DNA of 40,458 bases from Pseudomonadota bacterium (GTDB taxonomy: Bacteria; Desulfobacterota; Desulfobacteria; Desulfobacterales; JBDRRP01). The notes below the pieces were generated by a model. It made no database searches, had not been told where the DNA came from, and saw only the letters and a list, made by a program, of their open reading frames with translations. The translations under genes were made by a program, and so were the position numbers. How positions within the stretch are numbered: the first letter of the stretch is position 1; every line of letters begins with the position of its first letter. Shown piece by piece: positions 1 through 24,126 of this stretch. Location of the stretch: the NCBI GenBank assembly GCA_043825735.1, contig JBDRRP010000066.1, positions 1 to 40,458 of the forward strand. The letters are read 5' to 3'.

Positions 1-52
1 ATCGATTGCGATTCATTGGATCCTATTGCCAGAAAACGTTCGAGGCCTTTTT

Positions 53-1265: not shown

Positions 1266-3113
1266 CTATTTTGTACATGTTAAATCTTCGAGTAGAATTT
1301 TACCCTTGATATCTTGTGTGGATGGATAAGGATTGTTCTTGCACTTTGGGTATTTATAATTTGGGAATTGTAGCTCTTTGAGCCCGTAAATTGAAGGAAA
1401 AAATTGGGGTTTGAATAGAACATTGAAAACCGTGCTTCTTAAGAATGGATTGACATATAATTTCAACCCTTTAGTATTGTTTTCATAGTAATTATAACCA
1501 AAATTAAGATCTTTGGGATGGGGACATACGCCATCGGATCTCGGCCAAGGTAATCCGTAAGCTTGCCATTGATCGTTGCCATCAAGATTGCGGGCAAAGT
1601 TTATCAAGATGCTAAAGTTCCTACAATCCTGTTTGTATACTTCCTCTCCTAATAAAAAAGGTGGTTGGTTAAAGGTAAAATTTTCTATCATTCTATTAAT
1701 CTCATCCGAGTCAAGCAAACCAATTTTCGCAAGCACAACTGAGTGCTTTATTGGTGAAAATCTTTGTGGATCAAGTTTTGTGTCTGATAGGTTTAGATCT
1801 CGGTCAATAAGATCTGAAACATGTTCGAAAATTAGAAGTTTTTTGTTGGACGTATTAATGCTAAATGCATCGTTAAGATCTTGGCGTTTTACCACGATAT
1901 TGTTGTCAGTTACAGTAAAAATGAAGGGGACAAGATCATTATCGAGGCCGATTTTCGAAAATTCAATCGCTGCTGCCTTTAAATTAATTTTTAACTTATA
2001 TTTTGCTTTTCTCCAGGCATTTGTATATTTTGTTAGAAGTGTCTGAAATCCTGGTGGTAACTTTTCAATAAGATCATTGTAAATGTCGATTGTTTCTTCG
2101 ATTTTTTCAATGAACATTAGTTTAATATCGCATTTAGTATTATCAACAACAGCTGGCACCGCCAAAAAAACATTTCCATAACAGCTTTTCCATTCTTCGT
2201 ACTCTTTTAAAGGATTGCCTGATCCGCTAACCATATCTATACTTGCACGATAGCTTGCTTTTATGTATTCTTCCGTGGAAATATCCATATCCGAAAGCCA
2301 TCGATTCAAATTGTAAGACAATCTATCAGTCCGCGCATTTAGCTGGGTAGATTTAATTTTGCTGACTAACTTGTTTATTATCATCATACTATCAGATAGC
2401 GATTTCACTTCGGATCGTATTTTGCCCATTAACCATAGATGTTTTGCTTGGATTGTATGTTCATATTGGCGATGCGACTCGGCACTGTAAATAAACATAT
2501 CACGAAGAAACAGATATGGGGGGGCTATGATCTGATTCTCATTTGAAACACTTTGAATGGAAAATGATAATTTTGGAGTAGCACCTTCAATATATTTTTC
2601 CAGAGTGATGTGGCGGTGTTCGACTGTTCGTTCTTTGTCCTGTAAATCAAATATGTCGCCGGCATAAAAATTGATATAAGTATGCCCAAATATGTCACCG
2701 GCGTAATGTGTCATATATCCGTAAGAGAATGCAATCTGCTCAGGCGTTTGAGCATTTTTAAGAAGGTGCCTAAGCCAATCATCAGATTGCCAATAGTTTT
2801 GAATTCCAGGGTGTATTACCATCTGGCCAACAAACGCATCAGGATAAATATCTGGACCTAAAGAGCCTGCGTAAAAGCTATCCGGGTGCGACCTAATTGC
2901 ATTAGAAATATCCGCAGGTATTTCGTATTCTATACCGTTTATAGTGACTTTGCCATCATCGCTAATGTCATAAAACAATTCTTGAGCAATCCATAAATGA
3001 GTCTTTAAACACCACGAATAACCATGGTTTGGTGCTAACAGAATGATACTGCATATCAATACAAAATGATAAGTTGAATTAAAGCAAGTTTTTATACGTT
3101 CATGGATTGGCAT
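1266..3113 (-). CDS. Zinc-dependent phospholipase C family protein, probably secreted
   Basis: Hydrophobic signal-like stretch (FVLICSIILLAP..GYS) followed by mature N-terminal W-C-L-K-T-H; GSLGPDIYPD; GYMTHYAGDIFGH; HITLEKYI. These match the PLC/P1-nuclease Zn-ligand pattern. Start moved from 3296 to the ATG at 3113 to avoid overlapping the amidohydrolase. Confidence 0.75.
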   Translation of the reverse strand: MPIHERIKTCFNSTYHFVLICSIILLAPNHGYSWCLKTHLWIAQELFYDISDDGKVTINGIEYEIPADISNAIRSHPDSFYAGSLGPDIYPDAFVGQMVIHPGIQNYWQSDDWLRHLLKNAQTPEQIAFSYGYMTHYAGDIFGHTYINFYAGDIFDLQDKERTVEHRHITLEKYIEGATPKLSFSIQSVSNENQIIAPPYLFLRDMFIYSAESHRQYEHTIQAKHLWLMGKIRSEVKSLSDSMMIINKLVSKIKSTQLNARTDRLSYNLNRWLSDMDISTEEYIKASYRASIDMVSGSGNPLKEYEEWKSCYGNVFLAVPAVVDNTKCDIKLMFIEKIEETIDIYNDLIEKLPPGFQTLLTKYTNAWRKAKYKLKINLKAAAIEFSKIGLDNDLVPFIFTVTDNNIVVKRQDLNDAFSINTSNKKLLIFEHVSDLIDRDLNLSDTKLDPQRFSPIKHSVVLAKIGLLDSDEINRMIENFTFNQPPFLLGEEVYKQDCRNFSILINFARNLDGNDQWQAYGLPWPRSDGVCPHPKDLNFGYNYYENNTKGLKLYVNPFLRSTVFNVLFKPQFFPSIYGLKELQFPNYKYPKCKNNPYPSTQDIKGKILLEDLTCTK

Positions 3114-3256
3114 ATATTCAAGCACATCGGTTATATTGTGCAGAGCCATAGGAATATTCTCCAACAGGTTGCAGAAATACAATTCAGACACTGCGTCTAC
3201 GAATAGACAATGCCGGACTTTGTTCCGGACTACTACATCAATCGTTTCTATCTTCT

Positions 3257-4783
3257 TCAGGAAGGCAACTTTAGAAATCGATAGGCATTTTGCCAAAAGA
3301 AACGTTCGAGATAGCTTTTGTAAGCTTCTCGATTCATGATCTTTAAAAAAATCTCTAAATATTTACGAGTATTGCCGACCATTTTGCTCATGTGCCAATC
3401 CGAACCGTAAGCCATTTTGTCCAGTAGTTCATAATGACGGCCTTCTTCATTTGCTTTTGTTCTGGCCCGCTCGATGTTAGCAACAAAGACTTCCGGATTT
3501 GTGTTTTCGAACAACGATGTAATATAACCAACTTCGCAATACACGTTTGGGTAAGTAGTGCATAACTCTGTGACGATTCTGGCAAAGTTGTCCTCTTCCA
3601 GCCATTCTTCATCAGACTCAGCCATCCATCCAGGGGACTCCAGATCGCCGTTTCTCATTCGGCCGCCTCCTGCATGTCCCAGGCACAGTCGCAAGGTACC
3701 CCATCGTTGGTTTTCAAGCACGCTTCGCCAGTATTTCGGGTGTGCGTTTGCTCCTAGCTTGTGGCGCGTCTGAAAGCCCTGCGGTGTACAGTGAGCAAAG
3801 ACGGCAACATCCTTCAAAACGCAAAAATCGAAAAATGCATCTATTCTTGCCTGGATTTCAGTGATATTTCCGATTGGCTTATAGCCCATCGCCGGGTAAA
3901 ATTTAAATCCAAGTAAACCTTTTGACAAAGAGTATTCAGCGATAGCGATACAATCTTCTCTCTGTGGATCAAAGGCGGAAAATCCAAACACGCACGCAGG
4001 GCTAGCTCGTTGAAGTTCCTGCATGCGCTTGATCTGTGATGGATAAAATGGGTAATAGGGGGATTTATGCCCCGCATATGCCATTTGCATGTCCATCATA
4101 TAGTGCGAAATCTGCAGTTGTGGTAGATCGTGGCCGTACCCTTTAAATACCTTTGCCAGCATTTTTTCTTCTGATTTAAGCATTGTAAGGAAGAACTCGA
4201 TATAATTCTCAGCTTTCCCCCAAGCATTGGGGCTCATTAATGAATTAACTACTCGTAATGCTTTTTTCACCACACTTTTGGCCCAGTCAAAAAGTCCTCC
4301 GACTAACAATGTTTTGCCCAAATTTTTAAAAGGCACGACAGGGGAATAGAACGCTGGCAAACGCCCTGTCCACCCCTCAGCGGTATAGTCTATCTCTGAT
4401 AGATCCTTAATGATGCTCATCAATTCAGAAGAGCGTAGCGAGTCGAAGGCAGAATCTGCAAAAGGCCTATTTTGAAGAATGCTCACGCCCATATTCATCG
4501 CATCCAAGGATCCTGTTGCGACAAGTAGTTCGAATCTGGTTATTTCCCAAATCTGTTCCAATCGGTATTCATCCAATGCATCCTCATCTGTGAACGAATG
4601 AACCATCACTGATTCAGAATCAGGATACGAGGAGCCAGTAAGCGCCTCGAGAAGTTTTGCTATATAATTGGCCAGAATACTCTCATCCTTGTTCATTGCG
4701 TTGGCAATTATACTGGCCAGCGGAATATATCGCGCATTAAACAAATGAGTATGCAAATCGAAAATACGAGCGGGAAGATTCAT
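3257..4783 (-). CDS. Amidohydrolase family (Amidohydro_2-type) metallo-hydrolase
   Basis: DLHTH, GFKFYPAMGY, AHCTP, CLGHAGGG and YGSDWHM motifs. GGAGG RBS precedes the ATG at 4783. Confidence 0.85.
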   Translation of the reverse strand: MNLPARIFDLHTHLFNARYIPLASIIANAMNKDESILANYIAKLLEALTGSSYPDSESVMVHSFTDEDALDEYRLEQIWEITRFELLVATGSLDAMNMGVSILQNRPFADSAFDSLRSSELMSIIKDLSEIDYTAEGWTGRLPAFYSPVVPFKNLGKTLLVGGLFDWAKSVVKKALRVVNSLMSPNAWGKAENYIEFFLTMLKSEEKMLAKVFKGYGHDLPQLQISHYMMDMQMAYAGHKSPYYPFYPSQIKRMQELQRASPACVFGFSAFDPQREDCIAIAEYSLSKGLLGFKFYPAMGYKPIGNITEIQARIDAFFDFCVLKDVAVFAHCTPQGFQTRHKLGANAHPKYWRSVLENQRWGTLRLCLGHAGGGRMRNGDLESPGWMAESDEEWLEEDNFARIVTELCTTYPNVYCEVGYITSLFENTNPEVFVANIERARTKANEEGRHYELLDKMAYGSDWHMSKMVGNTRKYLEIFLKIMNREAYKSYLERFFWQNAYRFLKLPS

Positions 4784-4897
4784 AAGACCTCCTTCAATTT
4801 TTAATAAATACGCTTTAGCCAATCAATACTCATAACAGGTATCTTCATCCCGTTTGATATCTTTCCAAAAGGATTCCCCTGAGCCTTCAACTAATCG

Positions 4898-5807
4898 AGT
4901 CGGTCTTGAAAAAGCAATTAAATCGCTGTAATTAACTGGTAAAGGTAGGATTATGTTGCAAGTAATTATGACATTGCATCCTAAAAAATTGGAAATTTAC
5001 GGAGCATGAAAGCTTAAAAATCCCAACACAAAAACAGGCAACGAGATTTGTTCCTGGTTGAGCTTTCACAGATCGCCGATACCGGACACTCACAGGTCAA
5101 ACTTTCCAAGGCCGTTGCTTGGGATCGACTGGACGAGCTGTTCGGTGCTTCCTACTACCCGGATATTGGCTGACCGGCAGTTAGTACGAGATTGATTGTG
5201 GCATTGCATTACCTGAAGTACACACACAATCATTAGCGATGAAAATGTTTCTATCGGCTGGGTGAGGCACCCTCACTGGCAGCACTTTAGCGGTATAAAG
5301 TGGTTCGAACATGAGTTCCCCATCAATTCTTCCAGCATGACCCGATGGCGAAACCGCATCGGAGAAACCGGCGCCGAGCAGTTCCTCAAAGAAACCATTG
5401 AAGCCGGGATGAAATAGAAAGCGGTAACGACTTCTAACTCAAGCGGATCGTTGAAACTACGGTCCAGGAAAAAGAAATCCGGTTTCTCACGGATGCAAGG
5501 CTCTATGACCGGGTAAGGCAAAAGCTAGTCAACGCGGCCAAGAGTCTCTGGCGCTGGAAGAACCGACGAGCCGCAATTGAACCATGTATCGGGCACCTTA
5601 AAAGAGAGCACCGAATGGACCGTAACCGCTTGAAGGGAGAAGCCGGAGACGGCATCAATGCTATCATGAGAGTGGCCGGTATGAATTTCAGAAAGCTGCT
5701 GAGGTGGCTGGCAGCGCTTTTATGCCTATTTTTATACTGGCTTTTTTCTTCTCAAAGAGCATCGATCTGCATGTCGTGAGCAAATCGAGAGTTATTCAGA
5801 ATCGACT
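4898..5807 (+). mobile_element. Degenerate IS5-family element (transposase pseudogene with internal deletion)
   Basis: + frames read WDRLDELFG..*PAVSTRLIVALHYLKY, then WQHFSGIKWFEHEFPINSSSMTRWRNRIG, then TTVQEKEIRFLTDARL, then RRAAIEPCIGHLK..MNFRKLL, with stops and frameshifts. Imperfect terminal IRs: AGTCGGTCTTGAAAAA at 4898 versus reverse complement AGTCGATTCTGAATAA ending at 5807. Confidence 0.85.
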
Positions 5808-6016
5808 AATTGAGTTCGGAAACGATGTTGCTCAACCGCAAAGGAGGCTGATCCACGATATCGAGATGCGAATAAAGTCGCCCCTCGAAGACTCAGCGTC
5901 CGCTTCCAGAACAGCCGTCGCTATAGTCCTTCTCCAAATTCTAAAGGCTCTCAATGATTTCGGCAACCCCCTTGGGGAAGCCGACGCTGGACTTCTGCGC
6001 TTTTAGCATACCAATC

Positions 6017-6390
6017 GGATCAAAGCCGAAATGTACAAACCTTGTCATCGACTTTGTAGGCGTCGTGAAAATAACTTTTGAGTTGCCTGACCATCTGCTT
6101 GCCGATTTCGTAGCGACCGGAAAAACCCATTTTGCATAATCGATTATAGATCCAAATAGCCGTGTAGCCACTGTCGTTTTCAATCCAGGCAATAATGTCG
6201 GCGATACAGGGATCGAATTGGCTTTGTTAGATTCAGTTGTTCGGGTGGTTGAAACGCCTGGTCCGGATTTTCGATATATTTTTGGCGGTGTTGCGGTTGA
6301 TGCAGAGCGTTCTGGCGATGACCCGCTGCTTCATCCCTTATTTGATGCAGACTGATAATGTCAAAAACAGCCGCCTGTTGTTGTAAGATC
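6017..6390 (-). pseudogene. IS21-family transposase (IstA) N-terminal remnant
   Basis: Frameshifted minus-strand pieces: VFDIISLHQ / GMKQRVIARTLCINRNTAK / YIENP / SQFDPCIADIIAWIENDSGYTAIWIYNRLCKMGFSGRYEIGKQMVRQLK. This is the typical IstA HTH region. Boundaries approximate. Confidence 0.7.
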
Positions 6391-6548
6391 CGGTCAATCT
6401 CTGTACCTAATAAAGGTTTTTAGAGAACCGAATAATCTTACTCAGCTATACCTTTGGCTCTAAAAATTCTCACAATAAGCCTGTTGCTATTCACAATTTG
6501 GCTGGCACCACGGCGGTGGCCTGCCCGTAAATGACGCTGTATTTTTGT

Positions 6549-9500
6549 TTACTCATCAACATAGATGCGTATATTCGATAACCGGAATATAGACCGATTA
6601 CACTCAGTGAACCATTGCAAATCGATTGAGAAATCTCGGAAGGGTTCTGGAAGCCCGATGAGTGCAGTAGGTTGTTCTTCTGATTTAAAAGTACTAACGC
6701 TTAAAGGCAAATGAGTTACGGAGTCGTTGTCCGTGATTTCTTGCTTCCGTTGAGCGTCATCAAAGTAGCCTCGCAAAACTTGAGTTCTCTGCTCGACGAA
6801 AAGACTGATGGTAAGTTCAAAATTCACTCTGTCAGAGGATTTTGATAAGAAGCCGTTGTCTATCAACCAGGATTCTAAAGCAGGCCATTGTAGCCGTCTC
6901 GATTCCGCTCGCATACGATACTTTTTATCAAGAGCCACGGTGACTGGAAGCTGTTGTGGCGCGGTGCTGGTTAAGGAATCACTGACAAAGCCAAAGACAG
7001 GAGCGAAATCCGGACCATGTAAATTTTTACGGTTGCGCGTGTGGCGCAAATGGATAACAGTGGGTCGCCAAATCGGTCGTTCTACACAGAACAATAAGTA
7101 GTATGGGCTTGCTCCGATTTGTGGCGAAGTATTGGGGTCTTCATCAGGTTTGAGCAGATAAGCCTCAAAGAAGCCAGTCAGGGCGAAACCATCTCCATCC
7201 ACTATTAGGCAGAAAGTGGTACTCGACTCCCCGATAGGTGCTTCCTCGCACGAGTTCACAACCAATCGCAGATCGGGTTGAGGATCGGAATCGGGAGACG
7301 CGAAAAGCAATGGTTTATTTCGGTCCCCCTGAGAAGGAACAATCAGTTGGGTTATCACGGCGATAAACGGCAGTATGCTCTTAAGTTCGGAGTACTCTTC
7401 GATTCTTGGAGCATCGCTCAAAGCTTTAAGTGCCTTCAAGAAATCCTCTGGAAACTGTTCGGATTGGCTCGCCACCTTTGGAACAGGACTGTTTTGTTTA
7501 TCAACTTCCTCCACCCAGAACTCGAAAGCGTCGTTTGAGAAACTGTCCTCCTCATCACTCCAAACCTGGAATACGGCAGTTGCCAGAAAATCATCCAGAG
7601 GCGGATTACGCTCGCGCATTGGCGTGTTGGGCGCGAATACCGACACACGAGGTTTGTCCTGGGTGTATTCCGGCTCGATCGATCCACTGAGCAGCTTGCT
7701 CAAATTCATCATTCGTTTTGAGTCCTTACGATACGCGCATGACCAGTCTGATTTCTCTTTCTGATCCTGAATGTTGGTCAGCAGCTGTGAAGAGGCCACC
7801 TTAGGTTCGAATATTGGCTCACGCGATGGAAGAAAGACCTGTGGATTCAATTCATTCGCTTTCGCATGTGGAACACGCACCCGGCGGGTCTCGAGGTCGA
7901 TATCGCCGAGTGAACGGGTTGACAGTTTTACAGACGAAGAAACGACATCGATCAGACTTTCAAGGGAATATGCCTGGGCATCCTGAAGGAAGAAGTGGTT
8001 GCTATATGTGGCATCGGGAAGCACTTCCACGAAGCCGTATCCGATAGTCCCTGCCAGTTCGCTCAACCCTTCGTTAAAGGCCAGGTCGGAGTCGTCTTGA
8101 ATGCAGCCATCACCTTTGATAGCCAAATTGAATGCCGTCGTGGATCGACGGGTGCGCCAGTGGTGAAATTGTCCTGTGAGGGACCGTTGTGGGCTGTCGC
8201 CATCGCGGAAACGAGTGTAAAGCAAGGCTTTCGCATTTGCATACAGAGCTATATCCTTCACCAACAAGGCTTCAAGATGCTTGTTGATATTCTTAGACAT
8301 TTCGTTGCCGGTATCATTAAGCATTTCAATAGTAGCGCTGATTTCATCATCGGGTTGCTCATCACTGCCAAGGCTTCTTGCAAGATGAACGGGTTTAATA
8401 ACACGCCTGAGGCTTACAACCATAACCTTCAGGTCATCCTTGAATTCATGCGAGGCAAATTGTCTGAACAATTTTTTCCAGGCCTCAACGAGCTTATCGT
8501 CGGATAGGATATTGCCATCCTCACCGGGGTTCCAAGCCCCAGGCGTCAAGGAAACCATCGTCTGCAAGGCACGCAGACAGAGCTTGACCAAATTGAACGT
8601 TTGGCCGGTCAATCGCCTGTTGCGTTCAATGGGCACAAATCCGAGCGGAGTGATACTCGCCATAATGCGTCTGCTGTCGAGTCGAGCCAGGCCTTTGGGT
8701 ACGATCCAGGCACCAGCAGCCTCGGCATCACCTTCAGACAGCAAAGCAAGCAGTTTTTCGCCATTGGCATCTTTTGGGGCAATAACGCCTTTGCTCTCAC
8801 TCAGTTGTTTGAGATGCTCGGCGAAGAACGCTTCTGAGATGTTGGCGGGTTCCGTTTGGGGGCCACCGGGTTCTATTTTGGACGGACGCAATGCCAAGCG
8901 AACCACAGCCCAGTCTTTATCAGGATCTGGAATGGCGCCGGGACGCCTGCGCAATCGTAGCGAGAATTCCACCACGTTGCAGGACGTCGTGATGTCAGGA
9001 TGGGCTCCAACCGGCAAAGTAATCTCAAGGCAGTCCAAAGCGGTCCCCCAGTCATCCAGCAAACCACGTGATAGCCCCTTTAGGTCACGATCTGGCACCC
9101 CAGGGTCATTTAATTGAATTGGCCAGCCGCAACCTTTGAATCCTTCAACCTCTTTAAGTCCGCGTACAAGTTGGGTCTTCGCGTTGTCGGTCCCTAGTGC
9201 CTTCGCATAATCAAATGCAAGAAAGCGTCCATGCAACTCTAGTTCCTGCGCATAAGCGAGTTCGCACAATGCCCGGATAGCTTGTACATGTGCCTCGCGC
9301 CAAGCGGCCTTCGACCGGTCCTCCTGCCCGATGTCACTGGGTTTGTCTTTCGCCAGCATCGGATCTAAATAAGCGCGGTCGAACTTCAACCGCAGAATAC
9401 TCTCTCCGGTCAGCTCTACAGTAAAAAAAGGAGGGTGACCCACGAGGTCTTCGTTGCCATCTTGTATCTGTGTATTGCTAAACGGTGAGGTTACTTGAGT

Positions 9501-14700: not shown

Positions 14701-16090
14701 CCTCCGTGTCCCCCACCGCCTTATCCCACTTCGCTTGCTTGGCTTCCGTTACATGTCGGCGGTCGATCAAAGGCAAAACTAACTTTGGACCATGCATGAC
14801 CAGGTTTGCGGCCTGCGTGCTATCGACACCTGTAAATGTCTCACCGGGACAGGCTGTGACGATTTCAAGGTCAGTATCAGATTCAGCTGTGAACTCAATT
14901 ATTGGCAGGACGGTGTCAACCATGAGATCCGCCGATACATTGGCTGGCGGTATGGGCTTGATACCGATCTCCGCGGTGGCGAATACACCGCCAACCCGGG
15001 ATTTAAACCGGGTTCGGCCTATCACGCCATGCAGACCATTTTTATCCAGCCTGTCCTGCTTGCAAGGTCGAATGTCGTTCAACTGAATATTGGGGGCCAA
15101 GCAGAGACTGCCTGGGCGCTGTTGATCTCCTCGGCGCATCGCCAGAGGCAGTTCAGAATTGGACCGCCACTTCATCACAGCGTTGAGAGCGTCGGCGAAT
15201 GCGAAAGTGTTTAGCACCAGTTCCTCTCCAGGTCTTGGTTGCAGCCGAAGTTCCGCCAACTTTGGGATAGCGCCCGTACCTTTGCGCATTTCTACAAACA
15301 ATTCACAAAACTGCGCAGTTAGAGGAACCTGGATGGGATTGAATATAGAGACTGCGCCTGAGGCCCTGTTGTCCGCATTAAGGATAAAAACACTCGAGGG
15401 ATCCGCAGGAGAAAATACACAATTATATCTGGCATTCGCCTCATGTAGCAAGATAGGTCTGCCATGCTTTGAAAATCCACGCCAGCTAAACAAATCTGAC
15501 TGAGTATTGGGCTCATTGACGGCTATTGCAGCGACGCGCACGTTGGCGGAAAAGGCGGCCCGAGTGGGTATCAAATGCCCTGCGGATAGGTCCAGTTCAA
15601 AGCCACCGCTGCTACCACGAACATCGAGCGGGATGAGATTTGGCCTTGGTGCCGAGAATAACGGTATGGATGTGAAGCTCGCCACCAGCTTTCCATCACG
15701 ATTGAAAAAGGCCTTTTCTGGTGGATCACCGACAAGACGCAGAGCTCCCAACGAAATACACCATGGGCTCCCTGGGTCGCTGCCGTTAAAGATCCGGAAG
15801 TTGAACCCGGCATTATCAGAGATGGGATCATCAGCGGGTATTAAAAGATCTGGCGCTCCCGACGCGGGTGTTAACAGTACATCCGTGATAATGATTTCAA
15901 TCTGGGTATTTGAGATTCCGGCAATCAATTCCAGATCGGCATACCATTTGTCACCAACGAATCCAACTTGACCGACCAGTTTCTTAATATTCAGATGTGG
16001 CGCGCCTACCGGCAGGTCCATTTCTCCGCCGGGTTGTCCAGGTATGTTCTGATGAATCGGGAAAAACAGGCCGAATAGGCGTAGTCGCAT
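11714..16090 (-). CDS. Giant beta-rich hypothetical protein, 1458 aa
   Basis: Uninterrupted ORF with GGAGG RBS (16096-16100). The C-terminal half consists of alternating hydrophobic and Gly-rich beta-strand-like segments. No signal peptide. Confidence 0.9.
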   Translation of the reverse strand: MRLRLFGLFFPIHQNIPGQPGGEMDLPVGAPHLNIKKLVGQVGFVGDKWYADLELIAGISNTQIEIIITDVLLTPASGAPDLLIPADDPISDNAGFNFRIFNGSDPGSPWCISLGALRLVGDPPEKAFFNRDGKLVASFTSIPLFSAPRPNLIPLDVRGSSGGFELDLSAGHLIPTRAAFSANVRVAAIAVNEPNTQSDLFSWRGFSKHGRPILLHEANARYNCVFSPADPSSVFILNADNRASGAVSIFNPIQVPLTAQFCELFVEMRKGTGAIPKLAELRLQPRPGEELVLNTFAFADALNAVMKWRSNSELPLAMRRGDQQRPGSLCLAPNIQLNDIRPCKQDRLDKNGLHGVIGRTRFKSRVGGVFATAEIGIKPIPPANVSADLMVDTVLPIIEFTAESDTDLEIVTACPGETFTGVDSTQAANLVMHGPKLVLPLIDRRHVTEAKQAKWDKAVGDTEASTLSKIKHIHNKDAKHDTGVGELPTLLDQEIVQRFKYLFQSAKDAGVVSESRYFPTTGVDAEEGDSLSTPRFEPYDTVYGYGHFNLKLNIKTEELDYVIIRPDHLIDNIFNTKDFQDFKVDPSNNFMLTGDLPNRPDQQVNGDANLPVAIVKLSRDETLESIFDRHGLRKAYVVPGGSGEQRELFGDLLNRELTDKTWAGLIIFRVPIVGTQGNTSGLAGDLISNVKKVNLELAYLAVSPKQARNNGPVLQSHFARVLWKNGSVPIDPLDYSDDSETHETRFQIREIDVSWADNQLENLRVQTKLWVDSIFGIRFQKVTGDPREKAIDIIGRYDELTDEIRFLAQFAGPYKLFPFTDTPVTEGPLERVDLKSVEIIKSGEDLQLSLDGDIRLREFKIPGLDFDGFELDTNKVLEFKSFGLKIPKRLKLEGDLLEFSYPSLKFNLDLNPFRIAGISLKLKSIAMSFDGNGIDWESPMKLPTAKPIDITLPTLFIDLRLDFGLLPELASKNSNRFLLDFQIGFQGVSGDFWSRVQIGLSAVEFNRFELDLMRFLTVSVKKLGLVSRTLVLPGETIRYTAIEGVDVRLLVLDKEVVKHLSFAVILTQGGKLAFYVYLPTRVSGFLSIRWIMIGRGVTLSPQLAEDIMSVEVLGPGEDEKIAELLYDKNNPNEAPYEKVIPTSLDPIIGEWVFAAGFGIGGSDDNLLDGRLLFQDRKYYGLALGNGIFKEWFGFDFALSVLYEKGPMASQDRVVISIRAPKVVLPAFTFMGGVISLSISFDSSFLLDCGFPWIRNGFRMWDRTFGAIVTPFQATGGFYIRKGNISFPIRLGSGPGARSILAVGGGYGLQGGLGASFGGGVFTVWVTIGLYTIIEGIVVLEGSNMLALRLSGAIGVVLRGGGELRWWIISLRVEIVVGAEASITFISVRDPALLPHLSRVGIPNDQSFIMASTIRVRFRVYARASARACIGKKWFKICKSISVSVPMQVHYDLKLGGAL

Positions 16091-16116
16091 AATAACCTCC
16101 CCTACCGCGGAGTATT

Positions 16117-17367
16117 TCAGTTATTATCATTGATTGCTTGCCAAATTACGATGTCCTCTGCCGCAACCAATGTATTTTCTTTGTCTAATTTCGGAAGCAC
16201 TAATGGGTGCTTATTAGTCCATACAATTTCATACCCGTCGCAAAATCGAATTTCAAACCGAGATCCGTCAGATTGTCGTGCATAGGTTATATCGGGGTTG
16301 TCTTCATGCTTATAAGGAAAATAACGGTCGCGCCGTGATAGACCCATAACCGTGATACCGAGGTCCCGTTCAATATCGGCCACGCTATAGTAAAAAGGGA
16401 TATAGCGATAACCAGCCTGGCCGACCAAGCGTATCGGTACTTTTAATTCCAAAACGGCTCTTGGGGCCACCACCGTATCTTTCAAGCGAAGCAGTTCTTC
16501 AATAAGGAGGTTCCCCTTTATATCTTTCTCATTTCCTTCATTTTTGATGGTAAGCTTACTGCCTTCTTTTACGATAAGGCTTTGCAAACCGATGGTTGGG
16601 CTGCCCAGCCAAACGTTTGGATAAGGAGGATCGCTGCATTCGCTGTACGACATCGGAGGCCGGGTAAAAAAGGGATCATTCCCAAAATTGAAGAACGTGG
16701 CTTGCTTATAGCTGTTCACACAGCGTTGATTCGTATCTCCATCAATTTTCGGAACTGGCACTTCAAATTCAAGAAAAATAGTGGAGTTACAGTCCTTTGC
16801 CTCGAAATCAATGGCCTGCCCCTCGGTGGCTAAATAACGATACCACGAGGGTGTGCCACGCATTAACGCAGAATTTTTATCGGAAGGATCAGGTGTAGAA
16901 AACTCTAGCTTCATCGAATTGATTGCTTTGCCAATAACTTTTTCCGCATAAGCTTGGAAAAAATCCTCCGGATTATCCGAAAAGTTTGCACGCATATTTT
17001 GGCCGATTTCTCTCATGCATACAACCGCGTCAAAAGGATTTCCGGTCTCATCGAATGGCATTTTTGCTGCAGAAACCATGGATGTTAGAAGTAGAAAATC
17101 TTTGCGCGCGTATTGTTGTGGCGACGGAATTTTCCATCTGAATGCAGCAGGCAATGCTGAGATGGAGTTCTCGTACTGTGTCTTCAGCGCTATGCTGGTA
17201 GTGACCAGAAGCATACCCGGGCCGGGTTTTACTTGAGGCTTGAATTTGCCTAAGTTGCTTTTGGATAGGTAATCCAGACCGCGGCTTAGAGTTATGGGCG
17301 ATTTAAGAGGCGTTCCGCAACCGGTTAAGAAAACAGCCAATGTAAGAAGCAAACCGATAGTTTTCAT
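16117..17367 (-). CDS. Putative lipoprotein of unknown function
   Basis: MKTIGLLLTLAVFLTGC signal peptide with lipobox (start at M10 of the 425-aa ORF); ends 26 nt before the giant gene. Confidence 0.8.
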   Translation of the reverse strand: MKTIGLLLTLAVFLTGCGTPLKSPITLSRGLDYLSKSNLGKFKPQVKPGPGMLLVTTSIALKTQYENSISALPAAFRWKIPSPQQYARKDFLLLTSMVSAAKMPFDETGNPFDAVVCMREIGQNMRANFSDNPEDFFQAYAEKVIGKAINSMKLEFSTPDPSDKNSALMRGTPSWYRYLATEGQAIDFEAKDCNSTIFLEFEVPVPKIDGDTNQRCVNSYKQATFFNFGNDPFFTRPPMSYSECSDPPYPNVWLGSPTIGLQSLIVKEGSKLTIKNEGNEKDIKGNLLIEELLRLKDTVVAPRAVLELKVPIRLVGQAGYRYIPFYYSVADIERDLGITVMGLSRRDRYFPYKHEDNPDITYARQSDGSRFEIRFCDGYEIVWTNKHPLVLPKLDKENTLVAAEDIVIWQAINDNN

Positions 17368-17525
17368 TTTTTCGATCTCCAGTTTCAAATTCATTGTGAT
17401 GAGGCAATCACTAAATCGGTATTTGCCAGTTACGGATACTCGGTAGGCTTATTAGAGAATCCTATCCAAGACGCCAAAACCATATCGTATCTGATCCTGG
17501 ATATTGCGCATTTATGCCTTTTGTC

Positions 17526-17833
17526 TCATCCCACAGATAAATTTATGAAGGCGATACGAACGTTTGAGTCATGCGGATCGAAAGCACTGTGGATCCAGAA
17601 GGAAAACTCAGTATTTGCACCTGCCTCGCTTTCCCAGCGAGAGGCAGTCTTGTACACTCGTTTCTGTAATTCGATCGAATCCTCGATGAAAGCAATGGTT
17701 ATTCTCGTTAGCTGACCCCACCATTGTTCGTTTAGCAGTGCCGCACGGCGGCCGCCTTTCCCCGTTGTTTAGGCAGGGATTTAGGGCACAGGCAAGGGAG
17801 AACGTTCATGAATTTTTGTTCTTGCGTCTCCAA
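17526..17833 (-). pseudogene. Astacin/M12A-like metallopeptidase N-terminal remnant
   Basis: TTG start with AGGTGG RBS gives ETQEQKFMNVLPCLCPKSLP. After a frameshift it reads RRAALLNEQWWGQLTRITIAFIEDSIELQKRVYKTASRWESEAGANTEFSF..SNVRIAF, then a stop. No HExxH follows. Confidence 0.6.
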
Positions 17834-17862
17834 TCTTTCCACCTATCGGTTAGGCGTCCCAA

Positions 17863-18792
17863 TTATACTGCTATTGATGCGTAGGTGACCTTGTCCCGGT
17901 CATCCTTTGAGAAAGAGTAATTTATAGTTGTTCCCATTTTGCCATTAGGTCGAATGAGTTCATTCTCACTACCCCAGTAAGCTGTAGGATATTTATCGAA
18001 GGCAAGCGGTCCTTTTACAACAACGACAACATGGCCGTGGGCAGAACCAAGTTCAGCTGATGTCATGCCGGCTACCACGAATTTACCATTTACGGCCGCG
18101 AAGGCCGCCGCCTGCCCATCATGTTTGTGTTGGGTCCAATTGGCACCCCTAATTTGATTTACGATATCATCTGCGTTTCCGCTTAATAATACATTAAACG
18201 TATTGCCCACAGCACTCACAAACTTGTTACAGTAGTTGGCGTTTTCCTCTATCTCGCGTAACTCCTTACAAGCTTGAATGATCTGGTCGGCCTTGTTCTT
18301 TGCTTTTACATCAAGTGGTTGCGGGAATTGAGCCGCCGTCGGCGCATGAACTTGTGCAGATCCTGTATTTATAGTTACGAGAGGAGCCATTTGGGGGGAG
18401 GCTCCGACTGGAAAGTTGCAGTGGCAAACGGGTTCAGCAATCATTGGGCGAATTGAAGGGGCTACTTCACCTGGAACATACCAAGGGCCTTCGGGTTTTT
18501 TCCGGCGGCCGTCTAAAAACCAATCGTTGTTAAAATTTTCAGAGCGGGTTACATGTATAAGCAGTGTTGTAAAATAGCCGAAAAAACCTATGAAAAGACC
18601 GATCCCATAGGCGCCAAACAACGTCTTGTCATTACCGAAAAGCTGAAGGACGCTTGCTCCACCCACAACACCAATAACTGTGGTGATGTCGGAGAACTGA
18701 ACCTCGCCTTTCCGGTAACGATTCACATAATACACATACCAGCCGATAATCGCCCCAAATGCGCCTGCACCGACAAGGTGTAAATGTGCCAT
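17863..18792 (-). CDS. Membrane protein with C-terminal CHAP/NlpC-P60-like Cys-His domain (putative peptidoglycan amidase)
   Basis: Three N-terminal hydrophobic helices, a Pro/Ala-rich linker, then NYCNKFVSAV..NADDIV..GKFVVAG..HGHVVVVV..YPTAYWGS. Confidence 0.65.
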   Translation of the reverse strand: MAHLHLVGAGAFGAIIGWYVYYVNRYRKGEVQFSDITTVIGVVGGASVLQLFGNDKTLFGAYGIGLFIGFFGYFTTLLIHVTRSENFNNDWFLDGRRKKPEGPWYVPGEVAPSIRPMIAEPVCHCNFPVGASPQMAPLVTINTGSAQVHAPTAAQFPQPLDVKAKNKADQIIQACKELREIEENANYCNKFVSAVGNTFNVLLSGNADDIVNQIRGANWTQHKHDGQAAAFAAVNGKFVVAGMTSAELGSAHGHVVVVVKGPLAFDKYPTAYWGSENELIRPNGKMGTTINYSFSKDDRDKVTYASIAV

Positions 18793-18914
18793 ATTATTTA
18801 TCCTTTTTTCTTGAAAAAAAGCATGTGTAAAAATTCACGATACGAAGGGAGAATGGCGGCCGTAAACGAATTTATAAAAATATTATGTTGAGCGAATATT
18901 GATCCATAAGCATC

Positions 18915-19166
18915 TTAATCTGAAAGCGCTTTTTGCTCAGCAACAGAGATATGAAACGCTTGATGTATAAGGGCGCCTATAATCGCTCCGAATATCGTAG
19001 CCACACTGGACAATAGCATCGAAAGAATGGCATATAACATTGGTAATGCAGCAACCGCAAACAACACTGCGAGACGTTTTACTAATTTACGTTCGCGATT
19101 GCCTATCATCATTCCGAGCCATCCTGTCATGGTCCCGGCCGCTATTCCCCCGATAAAATCTATCAT
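18915..19166 (-). CDS. Small membrane protein (about 3 TM), 83 aa
   Basis: GGAGG RBS upstream; three hydrophobic, Gly-rich segments. Confidence 0.6.
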   Translation of the reverse strand: MIDFIGGIAAGTMTGWLGMMIGNRERKLVKRLAVLFAVAALPMLYAILSMLLSSVATIFGAIIGALIHQAFHISVAEQKALSD

Positions 19167-19619
19167 TAACTTCGACCTCCGTAGACGTTTTAAATGTAAT
19201 TCCAGAATATAAAAATATTGTTATTAATGGTAATGTTATTGCCACGATATAATTCTTAGAATATTCAATATAATCAAAATTCAGTTCACCTGCTGACATT
19301 TTACTATCGGTTTCTATGGAGCTATATTTCAGTAGAACAACGAGATTAAAGAACCCAATGCAGGACTTATTATCCAAATGAATCTGATCATTATGGGCGA
19401 TTAGTTGTTGCTTGGTAGCAATATTGTATAAAATGGGAGGCGTTGCTGGGTAGCCTATGTTCGGCGAGAGTAGGAGAGGGGCTACCCTGATAGTCAACGC
19501 CGAAAAGGATATTAGAGCGTTCATAAAAGAATGTCGAAAAAAAGTCAATAAAAAACTCAAAACAGTTTGAATGGGCAAAAATATTGCCTATCGGGTTGTA
19601 AACACTTCAGGATTTAAGG

Positions 19620-19755
19620 TTGATGGTCATGTAAAAAAATAGCATTTTCTCTTTTTTTGTCATCCCGGCGAAGGCCGGGATCCCGTGAGTACAAATACTT
19701 CTGGGCACCGCTCTTGGCAGGGGACGGCTTTCCGGACTTTTTACGGCTTCATCAA
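19620..19755. repeat. MITE/REP-like palindromic element
   Basis: Inverted termini TTGATGgtcatGTAAAAA (19620) and TTTTTACggcttCATCAA (ending 19755) enclose the GTCATCCCGGCGAAGGCCGGGATCC hairpin (19659-19683). Confidence 0.65.
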
Positions 19756-19790
19756 GTTTACTTACAAAAAATTCCAGATCTCTGCCCGAA

Positions 19791-20594
19791 TTACTGGCAG
19801 TATGCTGGAACACCGAGACCGATTTTCCGGATTTCACGCGCTGAATCTACGGTGATCCCCAGGGGAGGGTTATTTCCCGGGAAATTATCGTGGAATTCTT
19901 TTACTTTGGTCACAAACACCGCGGCAGTGGAATCATAATAGCCAAAGGCTTTTTTGGCGTTGGTGCAGTAGTAGTCGTGCATGCCCGGGTGGGAGACCAG
20001 GCGCTCATCCTTTCCGATGGCCAATATTTTTTGGACCACCGGTTTCGTTTGGTTCAGCGCATCGCTTATTTTACCCATGGTCTCGATTTCTTTGGGTGTC
20101 TCGGCATTGTCGGTAAAATTTACACTGGCCAGCACGCCGGATAACCCGTTTCCGTTGGCATTGGCCTCCAGGCCGGCGAAGGGAATCACGAGACGCAGAA
20201 ACAGGCAGTCGCGATCAGGCGCGTTATCGCCCAATTGGCTGCACAATTCACTGCCCGCATCGGACACTTCGAACAGTTCGTTGACGACTTCGGGGTTGCC
20301 GCTTCGCCAGTAAGCTGTCGCTGCGATGCGATAATAGGCGATGGCGTCGGGTTTTTTGCCTTGAATGGTTCTCAATGCGTCCGCTTCATCTTTGGCGTGG
20401 GCCGCCAGGCCGCTGAGGTACATCGCAGCGCCGGCCTGATCATTGGGGCGCACTTCAACCAGAAGGCGGGTCAACTCGTTGTCGGTGCGGATGAGATCCG
20501 ATGCGCGTCGCACATCGTCTACCGTCGCGCAGCCAGTAGACAGCACCAGGAAAAAGGCAATCGCGAATCGGGCCGTGCGCTTTTTCATGATCAT
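19791..20594 (-). CDS. Putative lipoprotein, alpha-helical (TPR-like segment)
   Basis: MKKRTARFAIAFFLVLSTGC lipobox; DAIAYYRIAATAYW helix; four further Cys; GGAGG RBS; 5 nt from the upstream stop. Confidence 0.85.
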   Translation of the reverse strand: MIMKKRTARFAIAFFLVLSTGCATVDDVRRASDLIRTDNELTRLLVEVRPNDQAGAAMYLSGLAAHAKDEADALRTIQGKKPDAIAYYRIAATAYWRSGNPEVVNELFEVSDAGSELCSQLGDNAPDRDCLFLRLVIPFAGLEANANGNGLSGVLASVNFTDNAETPKEIETMGKISDALNQTKPVVQKILAIGKDERLVSHPGMHDYYCTNAKKAFGYYDSTAAVFVTKVKEFHDNFPGNNPPLGITVDSAREIRKIGLGVPAYCQ

Positions 20595-20599
20595 ACCTC

Positions 20600-22462
20600 C
20601 TATGCTGACAGGGCCTCGTCAATTTCCTGATCGGTGGGTAGTGTGCCGGTTGCAAGGACGCTCCCGATGAAGACAGCCAAGAGGTTTAACAACCCCTCAC
20701 TGCCATATTTATCCGGGTTTTTGGACGCGTCCGACAAAAGTTTCTGCAGAAACTGGTCAACGACTTGTGGATCCTTGGCCACTGCAGTCACGTTGCCCGA
20801 GAGCGCCTCGATCACTATCGCGATGGCCGTTTCCAGTGTCTCGCCAAAGAGCAGTTGCGGTTTTGATCGACCGCCGGCGGTCCAGGCCTTGCCGGCCACG
20901 GTCAGCACCGACGTGATGACCGTCACCGCCAACGCATCTTCCAGTTCGCCGGTGGACAGCCCGAACAACCGGCCGGGATTGGAAGCCGCTTTCTGTGCGG
21001 CAATGCCTGCTATTTTTATCCATTCGTCGGCCGATAGCAGCAGATTGTCATCGGCGGCCATGGCCTCCGCCATACCGGCGACGATCACTTGCACCTCCGA
21101 GCGCTGGAGGCCCAACATGCCGGGCGTTTTGGCCGCTTGCTCCAGAACCACCCGCCCGAGTTCGAGCAGTTGCGCATCGCTGAAGGCTTTTAAGGCGCCT
21201 TTGGGCAGGCCGCCATCGTCCAGGTCGCTTAAGGCCTTTGACAGCCCCGTCGTGAACTGTGCCAATGCGGTCACAGCGACTTTTTCCCACGGTTCGTTCG
21301 GATTTAGCCGGAGGAGTGCGGGAGCACTGCGCCCTACCGTTTCAACGGCCATGGCTGCCAGCGAAGCCCCGATGGGGCCTTTAAAACGCGGGTTCGCGCG
21401 CAATATCGCGGCCGTGCCGCTGATCAGTTCTTTAAACAGTGCGCTTTTAGCGGTATCGTCATCCCCAATGAACAGGCCGGGTCTATCCACCGCCACGCCG
21501 AGTCCAGCCTGATAGAGGCGCACGATGCCCTGCTCGCTGAAGACGTCAACGATAGATCCGCCATGCGCCGTCGAAGTGATCTCTTCAAACAAAGCGGATG
21601 TTACCGAGCCAAGCGCCTTGTCGTTAGCGAAGTCTTTACCCAGATAGGTCTCGGTGTTCTCGGCGAGCAACCTGAAGGCCGCTTCAGCCGAGGGACCCGC
21701 CAAGGCATCGACAAGATCGCGATAGTGGATCTGCTCAGCAATGCCGTTCGGGAGCGCATCGACGATGGGTTTGGCAACCCCCGTAAAAAGGTTGGCGATA
21801 TCCTCGTCTTTAAAAACGGTCGCGGCGTTGCTTGAAAGGGTCCCCAGTCCGGCCCTGAGAAAAATACCCAACACACGGTCGGCGAAGTCCGCCTTGGGTC
21901 CAAACGTGACGACATCATCCGGAATGAGCGCCGACATGTTTTTTGCAAAGGCAACAATGAGCTTTTCGCCGCGGCTGCCAACGCCGAGAATGGACGGGTC
22001 CGAGGAGACATATTCCAGCCCGATGTCGGTCAGCGTCAGAGCCATCCGGATAATCGCACTGGGCGGCTTGCGCTCTTCGCGCCATTGCTCGATCATGCGG
22101 CCGCCCGATAACATCTCCGCCTCGCGTATAGCGGCATCATCACTTTTGCCGTCGCTGAGCAGTTGAAGCTTTGCTTTGTGCTTCAGCATGACGGCATAAG
22201 CCGCATCGATCAGTTCCGCCTTCGTTGTGGTGAGCTCCCGGTGTGTGCTGTCCCACATGGCGGCAAATTCAGGATCACTTGCGGCCAGTTGCTGGTTTTC
22301 CATGAGGAACTGATGCAACTGAACCGACCGTGATCCGGGGGGCAGTTCCAGGTTCGGAAGGAACACCTTGCGATCGCGTGCATGCTCTCCGTAAAGGTCC
22401 GCTCCCGCCTGCGCGGCGCGAAGGCTAGCTTGAATCCCAAAAACAATTAATGCAGGGTTCAT
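20600..22462 (-). CDS. Hypothetical alpha-helical repeat protein, 620 aa
   Basis: Long ORF with GGAG RBS, Ala/Leu-rich, carrying a degenerate repeat of about 57 aa. Confidence 0.85.
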   Translation of the reverse strand: MNPALIVFGIQASLRAAQAGADLYGEHARDRKVFLPNLELPPGSRSVQLHQFLMENQQLAASDPEFAAMWDSTHRELTTTKAELIDAAYAVMLKHKAKLQLLSDGKSDDAAIREAEMLSGGRMIEQWREERKPPSAIIRMALTLTDIGLEYVSSDPSILGVGSRGEKLIVAFAKNMSALIPDDVVTFGPKADFADRVLGIFLRAGLGTLSSNAATVFKDEDIANLFTGVAKPIVDALPNGIAEQIHYRDLVDALAGPSAEAAFRLLAENTETYLGKDFANDKALGSVTSALFEEITSTAHGGSIVDVFSEQGIVRLYQAGLGVAVDRPGLFIGDDDTAKSALFKELISGTAAILRANPRFKGPIGASLAAMAVETVGRSAPALLRLNPNEPWEKVAVTALAQFTTGLSKALSDLDDGGLPKGALKAFSDAQLLELGRVVLEQAAKTPGMLGLQRSEVQVIVAGMAEAMAADDNLLLSADEWIKIAGIAAQKAASNPGRLFGLSTGELEDALAVTVITSVLTVAGKAWTAGGRSKPQLLFGETLETAIAIVIEALSGNVTAVAKDPQVVDQFLQKLLSDASKNPDKYGSEGLLNLLAVFIGSVLATGTLPTDQEIDEALSA

Positions 22463-22482
22463 AATATCTCCTGTCTTGGATG

Positions 22483-23580
22483 CTATAGGCGCAGAGCTTT
22501 TGGCCCTAAAAATGCGTCCGGTTCAGCACATGTGCCGTCTAGTATGCGATTGGTGCGAATAACGCTTTTGAAGGCACTTTTAGGATCTTCCGCGGCCCCT
22601 ATCCCGCCACCCCTTGGTGATTCGCCCTCCTTTTCGGGATCATCTGTCGACGAGGGTTGCCGAACCAGCGCGCCGGCGACCTGGTTGATCGGAGTCAGCC
22701 GTTTGACGACGTCGTACCAGAACGGTCCTCCGAGGCCGATCAGCAAACCGGTAAGGATGGTGGTGATCACCCACACGAACCAGTCTGGCGCGTCCATTGT
22801 TTTTTCAGTTGTTTTTTCGGCATTTTTCTTTGATTTATCTATCGTGGATACATTTCCATTGTACCATGTAAACGGCCAGCCGATTGGCAGGCCCATTTCT
22901 ATCGTATCCGCCACCGAAGTCTTGAGTCTGTCGACGCTTTCCTTCAAACTTTTCATGTCGGCATCAACATCTGTCGTATCCGCGTCATTTTTATCGATGG
23001 TCGCTGCCAGCGACTTGGCCTGAATCTGGTAAGAAGTCATTGCTTGTTCGGCCTGAAGGGCTACCTTTCGAGCCAGGGTCTCGTTTTGTAGAAACGCCTT
23101 GAATATGATCACGCCGTTGATGTTCAGACACAAAGCGACAAGGACCGAGACGAGGACCGTACCGATCTGAGAATATTTGCGAAACCACACACTGGCCTGG
23201 CGACCGTATTCTTCGTAGCGTACTGCGATTTCTTCGATCAAGGCATCGACTTCAGTGTCGACCCTCTGGGATATGCCTTTTCCGATCTCGGTGTCGGCGA
23301 GCCTGCGAATGAATTCGAGGGTGGTCACATTGGAGTCACTGCCCTTTAACGTGATCTTATCGATAAATTCAGGCATATCCTCACTTGCAGCTTTCTCCCG
23401 CTTGAGCATGACCTGAATGCGTTGCTTCACCTCGCCCGTATAAAAGGCCTGGAGCATTTTCTTGAGTCCGATGCGGCGCATACCCAGCACCTTATGTATT
23501 ATTTCAACGACCATTGTCGCGAGGGTCGCAAACATGAGCATGCTGACTGCAATGGCAAGGGCTATCTGCAACACATTCAT
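22483..23580 (-). CDS. Membrane protein of unknown function (3 TM plus coiled coil)
   Basis: N-terminal TM; RQASVWFRKYSQ..VALCLNING TM; coiled-coil-like segment; LPIGW; ILTGLLIGLGGPFWYD. GGAGG RBS. Confidence 0.85.
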   Translation of the reverse strand: MNVLQIALAIAVSMLMFATLATMVVEIIHKVLGMRRIGLKKMLQAFYTGEVKQRIQVMLKREKAASEDMPEFIDKITLKGSDSNVTTLEFIRRLADTEIGKGISQRVDTEVDALIEEIAVRYEEYGRQASVWFRKYSQIGTVLVSVLVALCLNINGVIIFKAFLQNETLARKVALQAEQAMTSYQIQAKSLAATIDKNDADTTDVDADMKSLKESVDRLKTSVADTIEMGLPIGWPFTWYNGNVSTIDKSKKNAEKTTEKTMDAPDWFVWVITTILTGLLIGLGGPFWYDVVKRLTPINQVAGALVRQPSSTDDPEKEGESPRGGGIGAAEDPKSAFKSVIRTNRILDGTCAEPDAFLGPKALRL

Positions 23581-23949
23581 TTTCGCCTCCCGATTTTTTG
23601 ATATGATTCAAAGCGGGGAAACATTGTTGATTAAAGTATAAAACGAAATCATATCAATCCTGAAATCCGGATTAGAACCGGCTTAGAATGGAAACAGTTT
23701 CGTTTATGCCGAGTGACTGTTGCTTGGGCAGCAGCATCTCTGAAACCGGCAGAGCAAATAGGCAGCGTGGATTTGAAGGGAGAAGGATAGGGCTACCTCG
23801 AGTGTCACCGGCGACCATATCTATTTGAGCGGTCATAAAAAATCTGAAATTAAAAGTCAATAAAATTGTTATAAAAGGTATCGCCGGCAAAGTGTGGAGC
23901 AATTAGTGCAAGGATAATTCGGAAGGACGTTTGTTATCGGTGGTTTTTC

Positions 23950-23986
23950 ACCTTCACCCCGGCCCTCTCCCATCAAGGGTGAGGGA
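23950..23986. repeat. REP-like palindrome (CCCTCTCCC...GGGTGAGGG type)
   Basis: ccttcaccccggCCCTCTCCCatcaaGGGTGAGGG imperfect hairpin in intergenic DNA. Confidence 0.55.
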
Positions 23987-24126
23987 GCAAGAGGCTTCCC
24001 ATGGATGGAGACGAGTTGGTGCGATTGACGACCACGCGTAATTGGCATATTCGGGACCTGTTTCCTAAGGCGGTGATTTGTTGCGGGTCCAACTGTTACA
24101 GGCGGTTTTGGAGCCATTCCTTGGAC

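Follow-up and report, generated by a model that had tools for sequence, protein, structure and literature searches.

A conserved lipoprotein and two giant proteins form a unit within a mosaic gene island of a Desulfobacterales genome

Large toxins that lack signal peptides can be freed from their producers through lysis by holin/endolysin clusters (PMC10847048). AsmA proteins carry an N-terminal transmembrane (TM) anchor (PMC13542527), and bacterial gasdermins are coupled to proteases (see also 10.1101/2021.06.07.447441). Here we analysed contig JBDRRP010000066.1 of assembly GCA_043825735.1 (a Pseudomonadota bacterium placed in the Desulfobacterales); this whole stretch of 40,458 nucleotides (nt) is the window throughout. 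The original prediction had read positions 1266-23580 as one 22-kb system acting on the envelope. Those boundaries were too wide, and the conserved unit is a lipoprotein, LP425, followed by two giant proteins, G1458 and G1722 (6549-17394), set in a mosaic island. The literature that we searched on giant or uncharacterised clusters, including the accessible part of PMC12419801, does not describe the system; supplements lay outside this search, and table entries could be missed.

From an alignment of 38 G1458 homologs we fetched 22 loci (9 from genomes and 13 from metagenomes), of which 20 are distinct (L017 duplicates L007, and L013 is a near-duplicate of L012). A G1722 homolog lies directly after the G1458 homolog in 22/22 loci, 16 of which show a gap of 1-18 nt between the two; in the remaining six, frameshifts or start calling disturb the arrangement. 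An LP425 homolog sits upstream of G1458 in 14 of the 17 loci that have upstream DNA. BLAST made twelve of these links; the lipoproteins of L003 and L022 were added on the strength of where they lie and the motifs they carry, which makes their profile match circular in part. Genome-wide searches for an LP425 homolog gave no match in three gammaproteobacterial carriers (Pseudomarimonas, Alteromonadaceae and Rheinheimera). Across loci, the pairwise identities of G1458 correlate with those of G1722 (rho 0.73 and 0.83; 0/2000 permutations), which is compatible with what plain co-inheritance predicts; for the lipoprotein, rho is about 0.5. The structural core proposed originally thus stands as this trio, conserved across phyla and matching no known secretion, tail or defence family.

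G1458 was found in 0/150 relatives of the host and in 0/300 further genomes from one carrier's phylum, and its carriers comprise Alpha- and Gammaproteobacteria, a Phycisphaerales, an Acidobacteriota and a Lacunisphaera genome. Among 1.84 billion representatives the family counts 1322 clusters at E<=1e-3 and 198 at 1e-30. No relatives were found among plasmids or in viral contigs; a distant family member gave one partial plasmid match, which lacks an intact cassette. The family is rare and widespread, and is probably mobile. Because a costly 350-kDa pair is kept together and passed between phyla in a cassette of 11-12 kb, it probably serves an important function.

The genes on either side do not travel with the core. 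The 365-, 620- and 267-amino-acid (aa) proteins upstream, the 521-aa amidohydrolase and the 676-aa phospholipase C-family protein (PLC) have no match in any of the 22 related loci. In core-carrying genomes, partly incomplete and queried with single sequences, the 620-aa protein and the PLC were each found in 0/9 and the amidohydrolase in 0/5, and the 365-aa TM protein occurs in 1/9, on another contig and without its two partners. The 267-aa lipoprotein was searched solely against the fetched loci. The GC content at third codon positions (GC3) is 0.60-0.67 in the upstream trio, 0.44-0.53 in the amidase described below, the lipoprotein and the giants, 0.44 in the amidohydrolase and 0.34 in the PLC, with a genome GC of 0.575. 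The 22-kb span is a mosaic of at least three composition blocks, as had been suspected; on the co-occurrence in other genomes that a single system would require, the flanking blocks fail and the core trio holds. All eleven genes could otherwise be taken as one export or antagonism apparatus, its giants forming an outer-membrane channel through which amidase, protease, amidohydrolase and PLC are exported. Such an apparatus would fit the shared orientation and the finding that the families of the amidohydrolase, the amidase and the M12 protease also accompany giant pairs of a second type (see below), but the missing co-occurrence and differing GC3 largely refute it at the comparative level, and we regard it as highly improbable.

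Neither G1458 nor G1722 has a Pfam, NCBIfam, PADLOC, PHROGs or PDB-sequence match. An AlphaFold2 (AF2) model of G1458 residues 540-1458 (predicted local distance difference test, pLDDT, 82.8) shows a predicted, nearly all-β meander over ~900 residues, the last strands being 18-26 residues long. Most of its strands have one greasy and one polar side (at 1412-1429, for example, the mean hydropathy is -1.2 vs 2.9), and small residues lie mid-strand. Towards the C terminus, conserved aromatic turns alternate with variable ones. One tip carries the motif FGGGxF (1316-1321), W1366 is conserved in 70/70 homologs, and C1428 and C1437, kept in 94% of 69, flank a GxGWF tip. Judging from the strand order, three aromatic tips may lie on one edge and act as a membrane-docking foot. 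A large subfamily of 1,700-2,060 aa (P0119-P0171) keeps the aromatic tips; the Cys pair is missing in the few C-terminal ends examined.

In a structure search with the AF2 model, the best neighbours of G1458 were membrane β-sheets and barrels at high root-mean-square deviation (RMSD). Its C-terminal half aligns to maltoporin (Z 12.9, RMSD 9.3 Å, 273 residues), and G1458 also aligns to Bdellovibrio PopA (9gf0; Z 10.5, RMSD 5.0 Å, 223 residues). As many unrelated barrels score alike, the porin match is a generic sheet match. No signal peptide or hydrophobic N terminus was found in any full-length G1458 homolog (0/129), and the last residue is F in just 3/129. Thus, the porin-like C-terminal half, which would suit the outer-membrane channel of a single apparatus, is countered by the large maltoporin deviation, the missing signal peptide and the scarcity of a C-terminal F. 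Foldseek returned template-modelling (TM) scores of at most 0.15 for the G1458 and G1722 models. As modelled, G1458 is a curved amphipathic sheet of no known fold. Weak matches of the core to a cyclase of the cyclic-oligonucleotide antiphage system CBASS, VopS, RraA and SseC lay far below the cut-off and were dismissed, and a three-copy model of residues 1140-1458 scored 0.00, outside the calibration of the tool, and is used neither way.

Residues 1-1200 of G1722 (pLDDT 80.0) are modelled as a chain of FN3/Ig-like β-sandwiches with helical inserts, weakly resembling FN3 pairs (structure-search Z <=5.4). G1722 is acidic (net charge -66) and has scattered invariant polar residues, among which no catalytic motif was recognised. 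All 10 G1722 homologs fall below the hydrophobicity cut-off used to look for signal peptides in G1458. In LP425, a lipobox-like motif is present in 14/14 aligned members. The family's C terminus (window 16117-16400) bears an APGDV-like motif that we take to be reminiscent of β-grasp/SLBB domains in polysaccharide-export lipoproteins; it has no library match.

These shapes could also serve a lipid bridge, or envelope remodelling, in the producer itself, with the greasy face of G1458 as a lipid groove of the AsmA/TamB/VPS13 kind, G1722 as scaffold, the lipoprotein as far anchor and a hydrolase opening the wall. The amphipathic meander is unbroken over its ~900 residues and lined mid-strand by small residues, and a lipoprotein partner and nearby wall hydrolases are at hand. 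However, an AsmA-like N-terminal TM anchor is found in 0/129 homologs, no AsmA, TamB or VPS13 chain appears among the 50 listed fold matches, and the rare, patchy distribution is unlike that of housekeeping lipid traffic. We consider a lipid bridge rather unlikely.

In the window, a 309-aa protein encoded 468 nt upstream of LP425 joins three TM helices to a peptidoglycan amidase of the Tse1/Tae1 type (PDB Tse1, E 2e-18) that retains the catalytic Cys and His. The TM protein of the original prediction exists, and its CHAP-like domain belongs more precisely to the Tse1/Tae1 family. Loop charges suggest an N-out/C-in topology, which would keep the amidase on the cytoplasmic side in the way of a holin-endolysin fusion and corresponds to the class I holin layout. 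A fusion of Tae1 with a holin-like part is not described in the literature searched, supplements lying outside that search. A remnant between this gene and LP425 (17526-17768) has 28% identity to residues 28-88 of an M12/astacin-family protein in L035 (tblastn E 2.8e-5), itself an Astacin match (E 1.7e-5). The N-terminal part of the supposed astacin pseudogene is thereby recovered; its HExxH part was not found, and the remnant has no Pfam match of its own.

We surveyed the neighbourhoods of the core by scanning 82 chosen neighbour open reading frames (ORFs) with Pfam and reading others by eye. Cell-wall hydrolase genes lie no more than about 3 kb from the core in 8/20 distinct loci (Table 1), and none was found near the other 12, several of which are cut short, so the exchangeable hydrolases that had been proposed recur in only part of the family. 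In three sequences, namely the window, L005 and L019, no more than 470 nt separate a Tae1-type domain from the lipoprotein downstream of it. Enzymes and TM modules combine in different ways: one TM module is common to L007, where the enzyme is GH19, and L019, where it is Tae1 (E 4e-13). The Tae1-type domain was found in 1/752 randomly sampled genomes, and no giant ORF lies in the roughly 18 kb to each side of that gene. L051 holds a stand-alone Tae1-type gene (18511-18954; G1183) followed by a small, probably exported protein, with no giant genes nearby; the two resemble an effector-immunity pair. No immunity or type VI secretion system (T6SS) family was matched among the amidase neighbours, where no Tsi1-specific profile was run and no genome-wide T6SS search was made. 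There is reason to doubt that the hydrolases are cargo, as first proposed. The PLC itself carries a signal-peptide-like stretch. The amidase is membrane-tethered, is predicted to face the cytoplasm and comes without a recognised immunity gene, traits more in keeping with a helper of release than with an effector to be delivered.

Alternatively, the cassette is real and its hydrolase neighbours are unrelated passengers of the island, the giants acting or exiting by a route encoded elsewhere. The loci without a hydrolase accord with this, as do the varying position, strand and family of the enzymes and the three lipoprotein-less loci, which lie among unrelated genes. Yet the rare Tae1-type domain recurs close by in the window, L005, L019 and L030, and GH19 in L007 and L015, and we hold mere passengers to be improbable.

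The best reading of the core, and one that we advance tentatively, giving it somewhat less than an even chance, is a membrane-attacking particle that is assembled in the cytoplasm and released, or helped out, by holin-endolysin-like fusions. It draws on the adjacency of the giants, their scattered distribution, the missing export signals, the amphipathic sheet with its conserved aromatic tips and the recurrence of wall hydrolases beside the core. G1458 and G1722 would be co-produced, would fold without any export signal and would join into a single large particle. G1458 would supply the long curved β-sheet with one greasy face, its predicted shape, and three aromatic hairpin tips, one closed by the conserved Cys pair, would dock on or enter a membrane. 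G1722, predicted to be a row of β-sandwich domains, may provide a stalk or binding arm. The particle could then act on membranes as a weapon in cell-cell conflict, its exit from the producer being aided by a variable membrane-tethered wall hydrolase, here the 3-TM protein with its Tae1-type amidase. The lipoprotein would be a dispensable partner on the envelope side, for anchoring or self-protection, and the upstream trio, amidohydrolase and PLC would be separate acquisitions.

Several observations weigh against this membrane-attacking particle. No known toxin domain was found, and the toxic activity, catalytic site and target are putative. The shared edge of the aromatic tips is deduced from the order of the strands. 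Beyond the 12 loci lacking a wall hydrolase, three of the eight positive loci rest on a motif read by eye, and in L005 the amidase lacks a TM part. None of the TM modules was matched to a holin family (in L007, a PHROG holin scores an E of 0.08), and no spanin family was seen among the scanned proteins, where embedded small lipoprotein ORFs were not specifically searched. Since the sampled Tae1-type gene has no giant nearby, the domain is not specific to the cassette, and hydrolase accessories may simply be common in conflict islands.

Giants without signal peptides would also suit an intracellular defence or suicide module, in which they stay in the cytoplasm until phage or a neighbouring protease sets them off and then damage the inner membrane of the producing cell, much as gasdermins do though with an unrelated fold, and the tethered amidase completes lysis. 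GmrSD (L006), CHAT-TPR and caspase (L015), ResIII helicase (L019) and patatin (L022) are among the neighbours in related loci, and the M12 protease remnant adjoins the core in the window. PADLOC 2.0, however, gave 0 families for G1458, G1722 and LP425 at E<=0.1, and the gasdermin fold is not among the listed matches for G1458 540-1458 and G1722 1-1200. Moreover, the conserved lipoprotein and the conserved hairpin Cys pair point outside the cytoplasm, and no conserved protease stands beside the core. We judge a defence module unlikely. If the core is instead a particle that attacks membranes and has a plug-in module for lysis, it would add a new class of conflict system to T6SS, extracellular contractile injection systems (eCIS) and toxin complexes (Tc); if it is an anchorless lipid groove, it would widen the bridge-like transfer proteins.

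Two accessory genes led to another type of giant pair, of 3,300-4,000 aa and 2,200-2,700 aa. The best plasmid homolog of the amidohydrolase (Undibacterium, 35% identity) adjoins such a pair, as does the sole plasmid homolog of the TM-amidase (Rhizobium); two further amidohydrolase homologs (of 23 records) have no giant nearby. In L030, a Tae1-type domain lies 192 nt from the giant. Second-type pairs (L029 7719-26097, L030 3836-23331, L035-L041) lie on rhizobial and betaproteobacterial plasmids and are annotated merely as hypothetical; the giant was found in 11 plasmid records, of which 9 were examined, and the second giant is sometimes split. Among the genes around them are those for an M12 protease, a C70 papain-like protease, YkuD enzymes and TM proteins that bear a weak relationship to the TM proteins next to pairs of the window's type, showing an accessory pool common to both types of pair. 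A multi-TM protein family (Table 1), one member of which has an IPT/TIG domain, is also encoded divergently upstream of cassettes of either type.

By eye, the second-type giants resemble G1458 over their first 1,600 residues, and one of these giants has a weak DUF6603 match (E 0.011). Comparison of the window and plasmid giants with hidden Markov models gave an E of about 0.005 in a tiny database, and hhalign gave G1458 probabilities of 17% and 40% vs 4-15% for reversed controls; G1722 had no match. Homology between the two types is not established, as the profile comparisons were not separated from the controls. DUF6603 (PF20248) is the Atlas feature that matched the core at 0.87, a lead only; its Pfam model matched none of 19 family members (E<=0.1) and none of 26 more distant members (E<=0.05), and no function for it is described in the literature searched, supplements excluded. 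It is conceivable, if rather doubtful, that G1458-G1722 is a branch of a large, undescribed superfamily of membrane-engaging giants, together with the plasmid pairs and the DUF6603 giants. All its members would form in the cytoplasm, get out through interchangeable holin-hydrolase fusions and attack other cells' membranes or tap them, as a new class of bacterial weapon or export route. The cassette offers a first way into the DUF6603-like giants, which are unstudied.

ORF calls on the whole stretch confirmed the existence, minus-strand orientation and order of the genes described at 1266-23580 (Table 1); the plus-strand ORFs there are antisense within minus-strand genes or pieces of insertion sequences (IS). 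Only the amidohydrolase and the PLC were assigned a Pfam family.

Table 1 Features of the window and of related loci
Feature	Sequence	Positions	Strand	Remarks
365-aa protein	window	22483-23580	-	3 hydrophobic segments, 3-TM; upstream block
620-aa protein	window	20600-22462	-	putative α-repeat; upstream block
267-aa lipoprotein	window	19791-20594	-	lipobox-like N terminus; upstream block
Small hydrophobic ORF, 83-101 aa	window	18915-19166 (or to 19220)	-	no family
309-aa TM-amidase	window	17863-18792	-	3 TM + Tse1/Tae1-type amidase
M12/astacin-like metalloprotease remnant	window	17526-17768	-	N-terminal part only
LP425 lipoprotein, 425 aa	window	16117-17394	-	lipobox; 26 nt upstream of G1458
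G1458 giant, 1458 aa	window	11714-16090	-	core
G1722 giant, 1722 aa	window	6549-11717	-	core; start overlaps G1458 stop by 4 nt
Insertion-sequence debris	window	4949-6419		between core and amidohydrolase; 4949-5813 by Pfam and genome copy
Amidohydrolase, 521 aa	window	3257-4822	-	Amidohydro_2, E 7e-8
Zn-dependent phospholipase C-family protein, 676 aa	window	1266-3296	-	Zn_dep_PLPC (PF00882), E 1.5e-11
Tae1-type hydrolase beside core	L005, L019
GH19 beside core	L007, L015			start 36 and 136 nt after last G1722-family ORF
YkuD beside core	L003
M15-like beside core	L002, L006, L018			by-eye motif only
Multi-TM family member	L004	6825-7901
Multi-TM family member	L015	7743-8801
Multi-TM family member	L003	6703-7806
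Multi-TM family member	L035	16014-16871

The IS debris noted originally is borne out at 4949-5813 by DUF772 (E 5.5e-6) and DDE_Tnp_1_6 (E 2.6e-7) matches and by a second genome copy 74-88% identical; 6020-6419 has what we take to be an IS21-like look and no Pfam match. A short repeated element and an AT-rich kilobase part the upstream trio from the amidase. This trio is flanked on both sides by short palindromic repeats (19634-19759 and 23931-24018), which match about 8 and about 27 other places in the genome. No notable repeats or tRNA were found in the window, and its promoter and terminator counts were no different from those of shuffled sequence. Near the contig end (38337-39784) lies an AbiEii toxin with an AbiEi-type antitoxin; AbiEii genes also come after the giant pairs in L030 and L040. 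The contig start (window 1-147) is an element recurring at other contig ends, into which a 192-aa ORF of no family (window 53-631) extends.

Among the flanking genes, the 620-aa protein has no PDB, plasmid or carrier-genome match, the small hydrophobic ORF (18915-19220) has none in related loci, and the 365-aa protein gave one marginal match among 400 phylum genomes. Next to the unlinked 365-aa homolog in L047 are two tandem 1,250-aa proteins resembling leucine-rich repeats (1317-8920). The PLC scores 44.9 bits against PF00882 (cut-off 26.8), which assigns it to the Zn-dependent phospholipase C family with a predicted activity; it is low in GC, probably has its own signal peptide, and its true start is likely near codon 50-62.

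We then compared the core with the systems that it most resembles. Type 10 secretion and Tc lysis cassettes (PMC10847048) likewise place large signal-less proteins beside a membrane protein and a peptidoglycan hydrolase of variable family, and here too a hydrolase adjoins the putative cargo (the Tae1-type amidase in the window, hydrolases at 8/20 loci). In this case, however, a single fused gene encodes both the membrane part and the hydrolase, spanins were not seen and the module is missing from most loci; the core giants are also unrelated to Tc cargo (Foldseek TM score 0.06 to the Yersinia BC component). The amidase shares its homologous domain and catalytic Cys and His with the T6SS effector Tse1/Tae1 and differs from it in the three fused TM helices, in the lack of a T6SS gene in the window and in having no recognised immunity gene downstream. 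No cluster gene has a Pfam, NCBIfam or PHROG match above noise to T6SS, eCIS or phage tails, in line with the lack of T6SS, tail and defence hallmarks noted before; TssK is a generic sandwich match to G1722 (Z 5.4).

With AsmA/TamB/YhdP and VPS13, G1458 shares a long antiparallel amphipathic β-meander, but it lacks an N-terminal TM anchor, has no sequence match to them and none among the listed fold matches, and has an obligatory β-sandwich partner; viral Chorein-N matches reach only E about 0.05-0.14 and TM scores of 0.09-0.11. With outer-membrane porins, including Bdellovibrio PopA (9gf0; PMC12228718), it shares the curved amphipathic sheet and differs in having neither signal peptide nor β-signal, as the Sec and β-barrel assembly machinery (BAM) route would entail, and in strands of up to 20-26 residues. 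DUF6603 giants are likewise large β-rich proteins, and the core differs from them in its lack of a Pfam PF20248 match. By the criteria applied here, the core falls outside T6SS, eCIS and tails, PADLOC systems, DUF6603, AsmA proteins and Sec/BAM barrels, and we rate it as a new kind of unit.

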